Part shown: piece after piece, positions 22,850-28,590 of the stretch
Position numbering within the stretch: the first letter of the stretch is position 1
How the letters are laid out: each line of letters starts with the position of its first letter
The notes under the pieces: model-generated
What the model was told of the DNA's origin: nothing
Seen by the model: only the letters and a program-made list of their open reading frames with translations
The model's database searches: none
Program-made: the position numbers and the translations under genes
DNA from: Eledone cirrhosa
Lineage: Eukaryota
DNA length: 64,000 nucleotides
Assembly (NCBI GenBank): GCA_964016885.1
Contig: OZ024743.1
Coordinates: forward strand, 294,624,001 to 294,688,000
Reading direction: 5' to 3'

Positions 22850-23252
22850 ATAAATCAAGAAAGAAGAGTGACATGGTTTGCTATACAATAAGGTCTTTAT
22901 TCACATTGCTGACAATTGTTTCTCTGAACTGGTAGGTCTAGAGATCGCTACCTGCCTGGTTTTGCGTCAATCGATCACCAATACTATGTTATAACCAGTC
23001 TATTCATCAGAGCATGTGAGAATGAGGGGAATAAATAGGCATGGCTTCTATATATAGTATTGGCATTAAATCAGAACAATAATAACAGCACTCAAATAAA
23101 TTAGCTAGATAGTAAATAGTTAAAATAATCACAACATCGCAAAAACAGGCGGGTAGCGATCTTTAGACCTAGTTCAGAGAAACAATTGTCAGCAATATGA
23201 ATTAAAACTCTTATTGTATAGCAAACCATATCACTCTTCTTTTTTGATTTAT
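22850..23252. mobile_element. Inverted-repeat element (~115-bp arms) with hammerhead remnants
   Basis: 22850-22966 vs 23138-23252. The right arm has GAAAC-AATT-GTC. The spacer has a minus-strand CTGATGA at 23004-23010. Confidence 0.7.
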
Positions 23253-23260
23253 ATATATAT

Positions 23261-23872
23261 ATTAAAATAACAGATTTAAGTTTAAGCAAAGAATCGCTGC
23301 TTTCCCCCTTAACGGGATCTTCTGAAACCAAAAAAGTCAATCTGTGAACGCAGAAGTAAATATTTCGAAAAACGTTGCAACCGAAGGAAGACAGGAAGAC
23401 GATACTTTTGTTCGTGTAAACGTTCCCTGGCAAAGATTGGAAAAAAACGAGTGTAATACGATGAAAACAATTACACGCAAAGACAAAACCACGTTTATGG
23501 TATAAATGAAGTCACAGAAGAATATTCTATTAGGTGGTTTTGTCTGTGCGTGTAATTGTTCTCCACGATCCACATAATGACGTATTATCTTCGTTTTTTC
23601 TGTTCATTGCCAGAGAACGTCTCCACAAACCAAAGTATCGTCTTCCTGTCTTCGTTCGATTGCAACGCTTTTTGAAATATTTACTTCTGCGTTCACAGAT
23701 TGACTTTTTTAGTTTCAGAAGATCTCGTTAAGGGGGAAAGCAGCTATTCTTTGCTTAAACTTTAATCTGTTATTTTAATAAATATTTGCTCAACGGTTCT
23801 TATATATTTGATATATATTTATCCTTATCGAGGCCTCTTTGGATTTTAGTCTTCAAATTTATTATTATTACT
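23261..23872. mobile_element. ORF-less inverted pLTR pair of the same PLE family as 1349-3119
   Basis: 23261-23492 vs 23534-23779 are inverted. Both align by eye with 1440-1700. 23780-23872 is the reverse complement of 1349-1440. (TA)n on both sides. Confidence 0.85.
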
Positions 23873-24946
23873 ATATATATATATATTTATATATATATAT
23901 AAATATATATTTATATATATATATATATATATATATATATATATATATATATATATATATATATATATATATATATATATATATATATATATCAACTAGA
24001 AATTGATTGACATATATATATATATACCTAAAATAAACATATGAAACAATCAGTTGAAAGGACTTGACTGCTATTTCTAGTCGTCAATAACCCCATTCAC
24101 GCCACTGGGACGAAGCTGGCGCGATTTGTGTATATGTATTAAATGCAACACGTGCTAATAGTTAGTCACATATTTGAATTTGATGTGTAAACACAGATAG
24201 TTAAGTCTTCTTCCTTGTTGAAAATCCAAAATTTGATTACTGTCGTTTACCAATGGATTAATTGGTGAAATATATTTCTTTAAGGAAATATATACAAGGA
24301 AGATTAATCAATTTATAAGGTATCTATTTTTGAAGTTCTAGTTAAACTTGAATTAGTTACCCACATAGCTGTGTATGCTTACACACTTTTACAGATTATC
24401 CCCTGTGATTGTGTCATATGTTTATTTTATATATATATATATATATATGTCAATCAATTTCTAGTTGATATAAAATGCTCGAACCTATTCATTGGAATCT
24501 TGGAGCATATTTTACAATGGATATGGCGTATGTCTCTCTGACATGACACCCTTAATTTAATCTAAATTTCGGATATATATATATATATATATATATATAT
24601 ATATATATATATATTGCGTTTATTGATCGGTGACGCGCTATTCATTATTGATCAGCTCATGGTTCGATCTGTATCGATCTGGCCCGACTCTGGAATCAAA
24701 ATCTCGTCGGACCTATGCTGCTGTTCTAATGACAGAATATATATATATATTGATTTCCTTCGGATGAAATATTTCCAGTCCATTTCTATATTAAAGTTTG
24801 TATATACTCAACTGTGTATTGAGTACCTTACTTACTGTGGTTACCACTCATTGAACCCTGGACTCACACACCACTCGCACACACACACACACACATATAT
24901 ATACACACACACACACACACACACACACATATATATATATATATAT

Positions 24947-25042
24947 ATAATTGTTTCTACTTTTAGCACAAGGCCAGGAATTATCCAGTACATTACTGGT
25001 ACTTTATTTTATCGACCCCTTAAGGATGAAAGGCAAAGTTAA
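24947..25042 (-). mobile_element. SINE, 3' half
   Basis: ttgtttctacttttagcacaaggccag...gatgaaaggcaaagttaa. Confidence 0.85.
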
Positions 25043-25592
25043 TGGCTATCAATATGACCAGCTATTGCGATCTCCTGCTTCCTTAAATATGGAGCCCAAC
25101 GCCCCAACAAAACCCCCATCATGGTCTCTCCGGTTGAGGAAAACATACGACAGTATAGCAAACCAAAAGCACACCTAGGAACCGGAAGTATGTCCACGTA
25201 CCATACTGCTGCATTAGTAACCGAAAACCTGTGACTTCTTCCGCCTATACTACACACATTCTATGAAAAGCCCATCGTCTGCTTGTGGCTCGAGGATATC
25301 CTTCATATAACATAGGATGATCATAGTTAACGGAAAAAGAAAAAAGAATATACGCAAAAAGTGCTTATAGCTCAACTCTCACAGTGACTGGAAAGCCACT
25401 TTCTAACTCTCTCTTTATCTCTCTCTCTCTCTCTCTCTCTCTCTCTCTCTCTCTCTCTCTCTCTCTCTATATATATATATATATATATATATATATATAT
25501 ATATATATATATATATATATATATATAAATGAAGTATTTCCTTCGGAAAGCTACAGGAAAAAAGAGTGCTATATGTAGGCTACAGAGCTTAT

Positions 25593-25731
25593 TAGTTATG
25601 TAATAAACAATATAAGATAATTGTTTCATTTACCAGTGGTTTCTTGTAGGCAGATGTTATGTTATAATATGTGCCTTCAAGAAACCACTGGTAAATGAAA
25701 TAATTTTCTTATGTTGTTTATTACATAACTA
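25593..25731. mobile_element. Fold-back element (~68-bp arms, 3-nt loop) abutting (TA)n
   Basis: 25593-25660 pairs with 25664-25731 with few mismatches. Confidence 0.75.
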
Positions 25732-25849
25732 TATATATATATATATATATATATATATATATATATATATATATATATATATATATATATATATATAGTA
25801 ATAATAATAAAATTTTAATAAATATATATATATATATATATATATATAT

Positions 25850-26492: not shown

Positions 26493-26692
26493 ATATATAT
26501 ATATATATATATATATATATATATATATATATATATATATATATATATATATATATATATATATATATATATATATATATATATATAGAGAGAGAGAGAG
26601 AGAGAGAGAGAGAGAGAGAGAGAGAGAGAGAGAGAGAGAGAGAGAGAGAGAGAGAGAGAGAGAGAGAGAGAGAGAGAGAGAGAGAGAGAGAG
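26493..26692. repeat. (TA)n followed by (GA)n
   Basis: Direct inspection. Confidence 0.95.
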
Positions 26693-26800
26693 AATTAGTA
26701 TATCTACCAACATATGTATACAGATGTATATCCATGCTAGCAAATATATATGTTATGTCTTAGTACCTTTGTGGGTCTATGCAAGGGGATACAGAACAAT

Positions 26801-27049
26801 TATATGAAAGACGTAAAATAAGAGAATTTTAAAATTAACTTACTTACTAAAATTTTCACTCCAACTAATTAGTTTCTGTAAGGGAATAAATATAGTTACG
26901 CAAAGCAACTATAGAGAATTCCTTGACGTAAGGATTTCTCTATAGTTGCGTTGCGTAACTATATTTATTCCCTTACAGAAACTAATTAGTTGGAGTGAAA
27001 ATTTTAGTAAGTTAATTTTAAAATTCTCTTATTTTACGTCTTTCATATA
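26801..27049. mobile_element. Near-perfect ~250-bp palindrome abutting (TA)n
   Basis: Arms 26801-26924 and 26930-27049, loop gacgt. About 2 substitutions and one 4-bp indel. Confidence 0.8.
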
Positions 27050-27095
27050 TATATATATATATATATATATATATATATATATATATATATATATA

Positions 27096-27890
27096 TACAA
27101 AAATATGGTTTGAGGAAGGCGAGTCTGTATGTTTATTGATAACAAGTGTTAGAAGGTAAGGCGACAACACTCGTTATCAGTAACTACACAGGCTCGCCTT
27201 CCTCAACCCATATTTTTGTATTTACAGCTGTGAGCTCCTCTCTACCTGTTTCGCTCGATTTGTTGTTCCTGGTCGGACTTATGTCGAATCACGCTTTTGG
27301 ATCAACTCCCCCCTCTCTCTCTATCTCTCTCTCTTTCTTTCTATCCATTGGCTTGTTTTTCGGTCTCGGTTGCACGTGCGTTGTAAACCCTTTTGGATTA
27401 ACTCCATTTTCCTTCTCCTCCCCCGTCTCCCTCTATCCCTCTTACTCACCCCCCCACCCACACCCCGTGTCTATCGCCTCTCACTTCCGATTTCTCCGTC
27501 TTTCTCTCTCTCTACACTTAATTTACTGAGAATAGCCACGGAAATACCTGCACCTCTGTTATTATGGCCACCGAACTTAAATCCAATGGCTTGGTTTAAC
27601 TTGATCTATTTTCTCTTCGGTTACTCACATACATGTGCCATTGTCCTGTGTTCCCCCTTCTATCGGTATGTTTACTTCATTTTTCCTCTTTTTCATCTTC
27701 CCTTTTTTTCTTTCTTTCTCTCTCTTCGCTATCACTTCTTTCCCTCGTGTCATATTGATAGATAAAAGGCTATGTGCGCGCTATGGATCGATGTTCTGTT
27801 TATAATGCGCCGAAACATCTAGGACCCATAGTAAACAGCTGACGAAGGGAAACTTTCCATTACGTTTGTGACGCCTTACCTTCTACCTAT
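27096..27890 (+). mobile_element. PLE-like tail with a 5' fold-back and a decayed hammerhead
   Basis: Inverted repeat 27096-27150 vs 27166-27220. Pyrimidine-rich body. ctatgg...GAAACatcta...ccatag at 27781-27831 and CTGACGA at 27839. (TA)n on both sides. Confidence 0.55.
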
Positions 27891-28181
27891 ATATATATAA
27901 CTATGTATATATATATATATATATATATATATATATATATATATATATATATATATATATATATATATATATATATATATATACATATATATATATATAT
28001 ATATATATATATATATATATATATATATATATATATATACATTTAGGTTTGTTGGTTCACCAATGGATAGAACTGGTCATTCTGTATGGTCAACCTCGAT
28101 GTAATATTAGGGAGAGCACTCGACGTAATGCAACTCACCGGTCTTTGCTTGTGTTGTTGGTGGTGCGAGTACGGAGTTAAT

Positions 28182-28590
28182 TATTATGAAATAAAAGGAG
28201 GCTGGACTGGTGTAATTCCTTAAAGGTTTATTATACTATGATTATTTCAATGACCGTGTTCAGTATGAATCCGGTGACAACATCGAGTATTCGAAATTCA
28301 ACATAGGAATATAATACACACAATCCATTGTCTGAAAAGGCAGAGAGACAAGAAGGCGGCCACACATTTAGCAGTTTCTAGTCAGGTCGGCCGCCTTCAA
28401 GTCGTACTAGAAACTGCTAAATGTGTGGCCGCCTTCTTGTCTCTCTGCCTTTTCAGCCCCATGGATTGTGTCTATTATATTCCTTTGTTAAATTTCGAAT
28501 ACCTGATGATGTCACCGGATTCATACTGAACACGGCCATTGACATGTTCATAGTATAATAAACCTTTAAGCCTCCTCTTATTTTATAATA
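28182..28590. mobile_element. Fold-back element (~185-200-bp arms) abutting (TA)n
   Basis: 28182-28382 vs 28406-28590. CTGATGA...GAACacgg.c hammerhead-like remnant at 28503-28537. Confidence 0.78.

Follow-up and report, generated by a model that had tools for sequence, protein, structure and literature searches.

The window analysed here, 64,000 nucleotides of the Eledone cirrhosa genome, contains a dense group of long inverted repeats that differ in sequence and share an architecture, and an earlier note, made from the sequence alone, had read them either as extreme 5′-truncation products of many PLE families or as non-autonomous retrozyme/MITE-like units. The question is what these fold-backs are, how they were made, and whether their locus is in any way special.

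Fold-backs of the window and their density

Self-BLAST with microsatellites masked showed that the at least seven long inverted-repeat units described in 22850..28590 are real (22853-23249, 23263-23777, 25595-25729, 25851-26491, 26806-27044, 27098-27218, and 28219-28570). The further units placed at 16009 and 32537 were recovered in the same way (16009-16130 and 32537-32784), and the one at 61647, which is weaker and falls below the self-BLAST thresholds, is borne out by two opposed family matches at 61562-61754. Arm length in the window is about 60-258 nt. The units are mutually unrelated, as had been stated: they belong to ten families without common sequence in the last 350 nt, the sole cross-family match being 19 nt between families F and J (E 0.009).

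Each fold-back is a single insertion from a multicopy family, and all share the order (TA)n, arm, variable junction, inverted arm, 50-173-nt tail, and (TA)n (Table 1). The copy-number check on the arms confirmed that the families are multicopy and not single-copy. The (TA)n flank noted earlier is present, but its description was incomplete, as the flank is two-sided and the second arm meets (TA)n via the tail, which had been missed. In 59 evenly spaced 10-kb stretches sampled genome-wide, fold-back ends lay ≤12 nt from (TA)4 in 36 of 58 cases, as compared with 13% for random placement.

The mean density in the evenly spaced sample was 0.98 fold-backs per 10 kb. With seven fold-backs in 5.74 kb the cluster is 12-fold denser (negative-binomial P ~2e-4), but since the region was picked post hoc, a genome of 3 Gb should hold roughly a hundred clusters of this kind. 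The density is thus probably due to chance, and the cluster is a dense, locally ordinary patch of a genome-wide phenomenon and no special locus. The idea that (TA)n acts as a self-renewing landing pad found no support: with the ten families scored, family ends on both sides of a tract were no commoner than chance among 2678 (TA)n tracts (31 observed vs 24.9 expected, P 0.18) or among 887 tracts of the evenly spaced sample (1 vs 1.2 expected). The window also holds a SINE at 29313-29502, which we take to be octopus-type.

Table 1. Insertions, hammerheads, and target tracts in the window
Feature	Position	Arms or strand	Tail and remarks
Family C longer inverted insertion	1349..3119	tailed arm 1349-2852 (-), short arm 2852-3119 (+)	endonuclease-coding region 2447-2851 in tailed arm, 87% to L036 protein, stop inside
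Family A insertion	16008..16197	short arm 16008-16072 (-), tailed arm 16072-16197 (+)	tail ~67-74 nt; junction at 5′ edge of hammerhead
Family B insertion	22678..23252	tailed arm 22678-23138 (-), short arm 23138-23252 (+)	tail 173 nt; 3′ end of Hydra-like PLE
Family B hammerhead	core starts 23010	(-)	long stem II; this copy fails strict descriptor
Family C insertion	23261..23871	short arm 23261-23539 (-), tailed arm 23534-23871 (+)	tail 86 nt; 3′ end of Hydra-like PLE
Family C type I hammerhead	cores 23324, 23716	both arms, (-) and (+)	U4A core
Family D insertion	25528..25731	tailed arm 25528-25662 (-), short arm 25664-25731 (+)	tail ~65 nt; junction within hammerhead stem II, so CTGACGA is lost
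Smallest unit	25798..25822		~14 nt of family C long end inverted vs ~11 nt of its short end; (TA)n tract on each side
Family E insertion	25851..26491	tailed arm 25851-26071 (-), short arm 26067-26491 (+)	ends 70-75 nt apart
Family E minimal type I hammerhead	26229..26271	+	palindromic CTAG helix III; predicted cut after 26265
Family F insertion	26692..27049	tailed arm 26692-26929 (-), short arm 26924-27049 (+)	tail 110 nt; junction interrupts hammerhead core
Family G insertion	27096..27888	tailed arm 27096-27166 (-), then 27166-27888 (+) with one ~710-nt unit	fold-back listed by earlier note is the tail region alone
Family G hammerhead strands	near 27795-27850		scrambled (SGC) order
Family H insertion	28041..28590	tailed arm 28041-28402 (-), short arm from 28403 (+)	tail ~140 nt; both arms carry a mutated hammerhead
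Family J insertion	32459..32789	tailed arm 32459-32710 (-), short arm 32708-32789 (+)	tail 76 nt
Family J hammerhead	core 32636	within tailed arm 32459-32710 (-)	passes descriptor
Family K insertion	61562..61754	tailed arm 61562-61707 (-), short arm to 61754 (+)	tail 78 nt; family hammerhead (U3-A8 core) cut off in this copy
(TA)n target tracts between units	22615-22676, 23250-23262, 23872-23992, 25468-25527, 25730-25797, 25822-25850, 26492-26587, 27045-27097, 27888-28039, 28588-28609		26492-26587 followed by (GA)n

Hammerheads

Nine of the ten families carry a sense-strand type I hammerhead, and the window copies are often cut or mutated within it. The motif pair reported for the units stood in part: GAAAC..TH is present in nine of the ten window units, and CTGANGA in only five (three of the seven listed, where ~1.6 are expected). 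A hammerhead scan of the window itself returned nothing at the Rfam gathering score, and one hammerhead below it (HH9, 26217-26287, 32.3 bits, E 1e-4); hammerheads were supported at the family level. In the window, E, A, J, and both arms of C (U4A core) passed the type I descriptor, as did the longer C copy at 3050 and one unassigned match at 34086. The numbers of arms passing were 8/44 in A, 2/40 in B, 44/107 in C, 10/74 in D, 53/111 in E, 26/66 in F, 5/89 in H, 52/96 in J, and none in G (0/49) or K (0/117); the controls gave 0 in antisense and ≤0.1 in shuffles. Longer copies of K have a hammerhead with a U3-A8 core. In G the strands follow the order S-G-C in 21 of 30 aligned copies, forming a candidate SGC hammerhead. 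On visual inspection its stems I and III pair, locus L137 shows a compensatory change of two pairs, and stem II is weak (~2 bp).

Two fixed 3′ ends, one of each per insertion

The 3′ ends beside TATATA are two-peaked in nine families, with one peak at -1 (long end) and the second at -173 in B, -86 in C, -140 in H, -65 in D, -76 in J, -78 in K, -70 in A, -70/-75 in E, and -110 in F (short end); those of G are more scattered than in the other nine families. A count of 179 inverted insertions, which leaves out family G and five locus-edge cases, gave 146 long+short, four long+long, and no short+short pairs, and 29 with an unclassified end; exactly one arm was tailed in 146 of the 150 classifiable insertions. 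The window copy of G, inspected individually, was also long+short. As the focal loci were chosen by similarity to the window copies, only the counts of incidental copies are unbiased, and among 47 of these in the flanks 37 were long+short vs 1 (P 3e-10), with 9 unclassified. The data on family A come from incidental copies and not from a focal genome search. A family-free check gave 27 asymmetric vs 1 symmetric among 58 sampled fold-backs. Among the family tails no common fold was clear (z from +0.1 to -2.8).

Inverted PLE copies with a one-sided tail have already been published. Two fixed 3′ ends per family, with one of each per insertion, are unreported in the PLE literature surveyed, the supplements of PMC8557442 and PMC11167929 being places where tail lengths or paired ends may be listed. 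A literature search combining Penelope, twin priming, and inversion gave nothing on the topic, judged by titles and abstract openings.

Junctions, arm reach, and editing-like changes

A comparison of breakpoints among copies showed variable junctions in all families, as truncation products predict. In the 111 long+short insertions of non-tandem families, the short arm reached further 5′ in 34 and the long arm in 25; in 43 the arms ended ≤15 nt apart, and 9 met the reference edge. The long arm consisted of the tail only in 8/111, and in these the short arm cannot have been copied from it. The commonest junctions were 1-2-nt overlaps (41/181). In family A the junctions piled up at the hammerhead, where a single 20-nt bin held 31 of the 52 incidental arm starts; the apparent fixed 5′ end of family H was traced to a reference-edge effect. 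The arms diverge by ~1-22% within one insertion, and were closer to each other than to arms of other loci in 98/112 (E: 16/16). Gene conversion between arms could be another source of this within-locus identity.

The private changes of one array, L008, resembled RNA editing: 8/11 were sense-strand A>G vs 4/90 elsewhere (P 2e-9), and six of these A>G changes were present in every covering unit, on both arms. L008 is one locus of 28 carrying private changes, and the scar could have descended from an unsampled source copy. Singleton changes of all families showed no general A>G excess (163 A>G vs 224 T>C, P 0.72), and an apparent T>C excess was gone once shared variants were counted once.

Parent elements

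The PLE origin and extreme 5′ truncation put forward earlier were supported. Longer copies of families B and C enter an RT/GIY-YIG ORF. The colinear endonuclease region is present in 8/21 other loci of B, where it ends ~1.1-1.2 kb upstream in 7, and is reached in 6/23 other loci of C. The colinear ORFs carry YRDD and VY..YIG motifs and had 1487 homologues at E≤1e-10, and most of the 120 listed were ~700 aa long; searches against Pfam and PDB gave no match, and the RT and GIY-YIG domain names are thus based on motifs. The Hydra-clade CxCX5C linker, CxxC, and CxH are present, with no CCHH in the GIY-YIG core (L178 for C, L176 for B), as are DKT and RWR in C (L179), the B fragments stopping short of that region. 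Judged by these motifs, B and C are Hydra-clade-like PLEs; an assignment as Neptune-like was dropped as the motifs fit Hydra.

When 15-29 long-end copies per family were compared, with the best 40 candidates of each search scored, families A, D, E, F, G, H, J, and K showed no colinear sense ORF common to copies, and H showed no PLE ORF in a body of at least 2.3 kb. Of the non-autonomous options the retrozyme part was supported for some families and the MITE part was not, since the two ends are asymmetric and the junctions vary. By their sequence, E, F, and G are ORF-less retrozyme-type tandem units of 466 nt, 532 nt (531-533), and ~710 nt, those of E and F repeated in arrays at other loci, with GC of 0.36, 0.36, and 0.44 and longest ATG frames of 50, 43, and 75 aa, respectively.

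Origin of the fold-backs

A fold-back is probably a 5′-truncated head-to-head insertion into (TA)n, either of a PLE (B, C) or of an ORF-less family likely moved by PLEs (E, F, G; probably A, D, H, J, K). Both nicked target strands likely served as primers, copying a single sense RNA from two fixed start positions. The GIY-YIG enzyme would nick both strands of the self-complementary (TA)n; the tailed arm would come from the strand that primes reverse transcription at the downstream site, and the tail-less arm from the strand that primes at the upstream site. Both cDNAs would end early, often at the hammerhead, and be joined via a few matching bases. Where the two cDNAs span a common stretch, a palindrome would form; where the tailed cDNA ends within the tail, the outcome would be a plain inversion. 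On a circular or multimeric RNA template each arm would become a tandem array. A purified PLE protein, a predicted dimer, nicks and extends both strands and starts at two internal RNA sites whose spacing equals the tail (PMC11167929). Against the model, the sections of that study considered here found that start sites did not differ between the top and the bottom strand, and they do not measure the pairing of the two starts.

The same PLE products could also arise with a separate RNA for each arm, one per enzyme subunit, protein geometry or later processing setting the tailed end. We consider this unlikely: it accounts for arms that extend upstream independently and for their overlap with no need of strand displacement, and fits the dimer predicted in PMC11167929, but arms are more alike within than between loci, and the six private A>G changes of L008 occur on both its arms.

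Somewhat less likely still is self-priming, in which a snap-back of the first cDNA, or of an antisense template, provides the strand that is copied, with the endonuclease trimming one end; self-priming on an antisense template was proposed for PLE inverted insertions in PMC3846280, and the tail was seen as endonuclease resolution in PMC8557442. Arms would be identical at birth, and many junctions (the 43/111 within 15 nt) do resemble hairpin tips. However, the tail-less arm outreaches the tailed arm in 34/111, the 8/111 insertions without any arm overlap contradict self-priming for those cases, and the A>G changes of L008 sit on the sense strand. Taken together, the one-of-each 3′ ends, the reach of either arm further upstream, and the editing-like changes on both arms favour two-strand priming on one sense RNA over self-priming.

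The fixed mini-element system proposed in the earlier note, with MITE-like units or hairpin retrozymes moving as palindromes, is improbable. The junction pile-up in some families (A) gives copies of similar size and could suggest such units, but junctions vary among copies in all families, with 207 different joints for B and C in short-read contigs, the two ends are asymmetric, and longer copies enter PLE ORFs or tandem arrays, B and C being ends of ORF-bearing elements; thus, these are not fixed mini-elements or MITEs. Assembly or amplification artefacts are very improbable since arms differ by ~1-22%, ends are family-fixed at non-symmetric sites, and joints of the same kind occur in short-read contigs, even if the window's own junctions are not among the joints listed from these (probably another individual).

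Returning to two-strand priming, a wider proposal is tentative, and it may well be wrong: that a single sense RNA is bound by a PLE dimer at both fixed start positions and copied simultaneously from the two target strands, and that the same reaction rolls round circular retrozyme RNAs, writing two-armed arrays in a single event and able to fix an ADAR-edited molecule in DNA. With ~300,000 hairpins, PLE chemistry would then be a main source of self-folding dsRNA in the genome. The one-long-one-short rule in nine unrelated families, the independent arm reach, and the sense-strand editing scar make the origin of PLE inversions directly testable, and ORF-less tandem families bearing this footprint too are evidence from the genome for PLE enzymes moving retrozymes. 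In an octopod host, the hairpins would be candidate sources of the hyper-editing and the exceptional potential for double-stranded RNA that have been reported for octopus (PMC5625713).

Comparison with known systems

Like EN+ PLE insertions (PMC8557442, PMC3846280), the fold-backs are inverted head to head and truncated at the 5′ side, lie in (TA)n targets, and have a one-sided tail and a terminal-repeat hammerhead. They differ in that the tails described in those reports are 30-40 bp and optional, as compared with ~50-173 nt and one tailed arm in nearly every classifiable insertion here. With Hydra-clade PLEs as described in PMC8557442, B and C have in common CxCX5C, CxxC, CxH, hammerheads of the canonical type, (TA)n targets, and a GIY-YIG core with a single cysteine; C also has DKT, with RWR where the clade has RWK. 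The 3′ non-coding region is ~1.15-1.2 kb here, and the assignment is by motifs. PAc Poseidon in vitro (PMC11167929) likewise uses two internal start sites bounding the tail, and both strands are nicked and extended at AT-rich DNA. It belongs to another clade, its start sites are close together, and the sections considered here do not report pairing within one insertion or cover later steps.

The G motif has the order of type-SGC hammerheads (PMC10085705), i.e. cut site, GAAA, CUGANGA, and its stems I and III can pair; this candidate lies in a genomic tandem repeat, whereas the examples given in that report are from metatranscriptomes. Like metazoan non-LTR retrozymes (PMC7229834; bioRxiv 10.64898/2026.07.22.740005), E and F are ORF-less tandem units of 36% GC with one type I hammerhead each. 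The published units are 150-450 bp and those of E, F, and G are longer. The word "inverted" is absent from the main text of PMC7229834 and, outside one reference, from the text considered of bioRxiv 10.64898/2026.07.22.740005, which discusses local tandem expansion; unlike published retrozymes, the arrays here are two-armed, end at two fixed PLE-type sites, and look insertion-made.

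Fold-backs of the window and their genomic background

Masked self-BLAST of the window (G000:C4:294624001–294688000) recovered the fold-backs (inverted-repeat units of two head-to-head arms) claimed in an earlier note, seven in 22853–28570 and two at 16009 and 32537, and a further one at 61647 proved to be real though degenerate. As the note had also stated, the units share no obvious sequence with one another; the ten families are mutually unrelated. Family C has a longer relative elsewhere in the window (1349–3119). Small fold-backs outside the note's list were seen by self-BLAST at 28676–28715 and 42319–42414.

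Fold-back families and the window positions of their copies
Family	Position	Remark
A	16009	
B	22853	
C	23263	
D	25595	
E	25851	
F	26806	
G	27098	
H	28219	
J	32537	
K	61647	degenerate

With the same detector, 59 evenly spaced 10-kb stretches yielded 58 fold-backs (~1 per 10 kb), which extrapolates to a total of roughly 300,000 in the 3.0-Gb genome. Contact with (TA)n was found for 36 of the 58 versus 13% under random placement, and 26/58 had one end at (TA)n and the other 40–200 nt from (TA)n (3% random). By overlap, the ten window families account for 20/58. The density of the cluster region was 12x the mean (P ~2e-4 per stretch of that size), so that many clusters this dense are expected in a 3-Gb genome. 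Since tracts filled on one side showed no excess filling on the opposite side, the idea that (TA)n acts as a self-renewing landing pad found no support.

Parent elements

Genome searches gave 1257–6413 first-look candidates per family, and the best 40 were scored per search; the family A search was uninformative, and the A figures rest on other copies. Among the best 40 candidates, family B ran colinearly into an endonuclease region at 8 of 21 other loci and family C at 6 of 23, and the window's own C copy likewise reaches this region (2447–2851). The longer B and C stretches contain RT and endonuclease within one frame, with the protein motifs CxCX5C, CxxC and CxH and one core cysteine only, and in C also DKT and RWR. 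The elements that have B and C as their 3' ends carry ORFs, and their motif set matches, apart from RWR in place of RWK, that of the Hydra clade Penelope-like elements (PLEs), which target (TA)n, as described in PMC8557442. Tandem units without ORF were found in families E (466 nt), F (531–533 nt) and G (about 710 nt), family H showed no PLE ORF along at least 2.3 kb of body, and no parent element of A, D, J or K was reached among the best 40 candidates per search (for A, among incidental copies, i.e. those met by chance in flanks).

A second, different PLE-type endonuclease remnant (3131–3931 (-), matching the protein of family C at about 31%) adjoins (TA)n 3116–3130 with its 3' end. Two (TA)n-bounded pieces lie outside the ten families: a multicopy body enclosed by a perfect 19-nt inverted pair (23993–24011/24449–24467) and a multicopy piece at 24615–24736; 24751–24864 is a family A remnant. 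Family H copies at L288 (1888 onward) and L290 (1–750), both in G000:C2 near 149.05–149.08 Mb, adjoin long, degenerate telomere-like hexamer arrays on their 5' side, as judged from translations.

Other repeats in the window were non-LTR retrotransposon remnants at 19818–21557 (+), 42631–45659 (-) and 60007–61044, with Pfam matches to RVT_1 (at 19818 and 42631) and Exo_endo_phos (at 44349); by self-BLAST, 60051–61132 is an inverted relative of 43373–45621. A PIF1-like helicase fragment with weak Pfam matches (7559–9766 (-)) is presumably a Helitron remnant, and a SINE-like repeat, abundant by self-BLAST (9951, 19168, 24950, 29313, 33916, 34855, 40811, 58153), is a candidate octopus-type element.

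Hammerheads

A type I hammerhead descriptor matched arms in the sense orientation in families A, B, C, D, E, F, H and J, with zero matches on the antisense strand and almost none in shuffled sequence. Family C has a U4A core, and longer copies of family K have a U3-A8 core, a variant previously reported in PLEs in PMC4209133, which also mentions paired hammerhead motifs on opposite strands 100–700 bp apart. In family G the three hammerhead strands stand in non-circular order (27795–27850 (+) in the window); the order matches type SGC, for which PMC10085705 gives metatranscriptomes as the earlier source, and G's stem II is weak. Of the window copies, those of C, E, A and J satisfy the descriptor; the B copy has a full core and fails at stem II, those of D, F and K are truncated inside the ribozyme, and that of H is mutated. 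Arm starts cluster near the ribozyme, with 31 of 52 family A starts in one 20-nt bin (two A copies extend to -376) and 20 of 60 C starts in two bins, which may reflect enzyme stalling or the RNA 5' end.

Two fixed ends and variable junctions

In every family, the 3' ends next to (TA)n fell at two fixed points, a long one carrying the tail and a short, tail-less one. The two are separated by 65–173 nt in nine families and, with more scatter, by about 50 nt in family G. Of 179 inverted insertions, 146 paired long with short, 4 long with long and none short with short, and 29 had an unclassified end. Because the focal loci had been picked by likeness to the window copies, the incidental set is the proper test; here long+short pairing prevailed by 37 to 1 (38 classifiable of 47). 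The sampled fold-backs of any family gave 27 asymmetric versus 1 symmetric. Junctions differed among copies, a 1–2 nt overlap being commonest, and short-read contigs contained 207 distinct joints over families B and C.

Proposed mechanism

In PMC11167929, a PLE protein is shown to nick and to extend each of the two strands of AT-rich DNA, with reverse transcription starting at two internal RNA sites bounding the tail. To this the genomic data add, we infer, that one insertion would use one start site per target strand, both starts most simply lying on a single sense RNA. Arrays of up to about 4+5 further units in E and up to 6 in F end at the same two sites, which would fit copying round a putative circular or multimeric RNA.

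In 98 of 112 cases, the arms of an insertion resembled each other more closely than they did arms from other loci; the two arms may nevertheless have been copied from separate RNAs, and their similarity may stem from gene conversion. Antisense self-priming, proposed in PMC3846280, predicts editing on the strand opposite to that seen in L008 (G000:C1688:1418–5057), a two-armed family E array in which 8 of 11 private changes are sense-strand A>G. Six of these are common to every unit covering them in both arms; each of the six has A or T on its 5' side, and pairing is predicted for five. Helices III and I of the hammerhead contain one each. L008 resembles reverse-transcribed edited RNA; no such A>G bias was found family-wide. 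Snap-back on the first cDNA cannot make a second arm that exceeds the first in length or has no overlap with it. Among 111 insertions the tail-less arm reached further upstream in 34 and the tailed arm in 25, and in 8 the tailed arm was the tail alone, with no palindrome. A unit of just 25 bp at 25798 is the most extreme case.

Comparison with known elements

Long tails, strict end pairing over nine families and two-armed retrozyme arrays were not found in the main-text portions of the literature searched. The fold-back structure itself is a known PLE footprint, as PMC8557442 describes it, and the new mini-element system proposed in the note is therefore without support.
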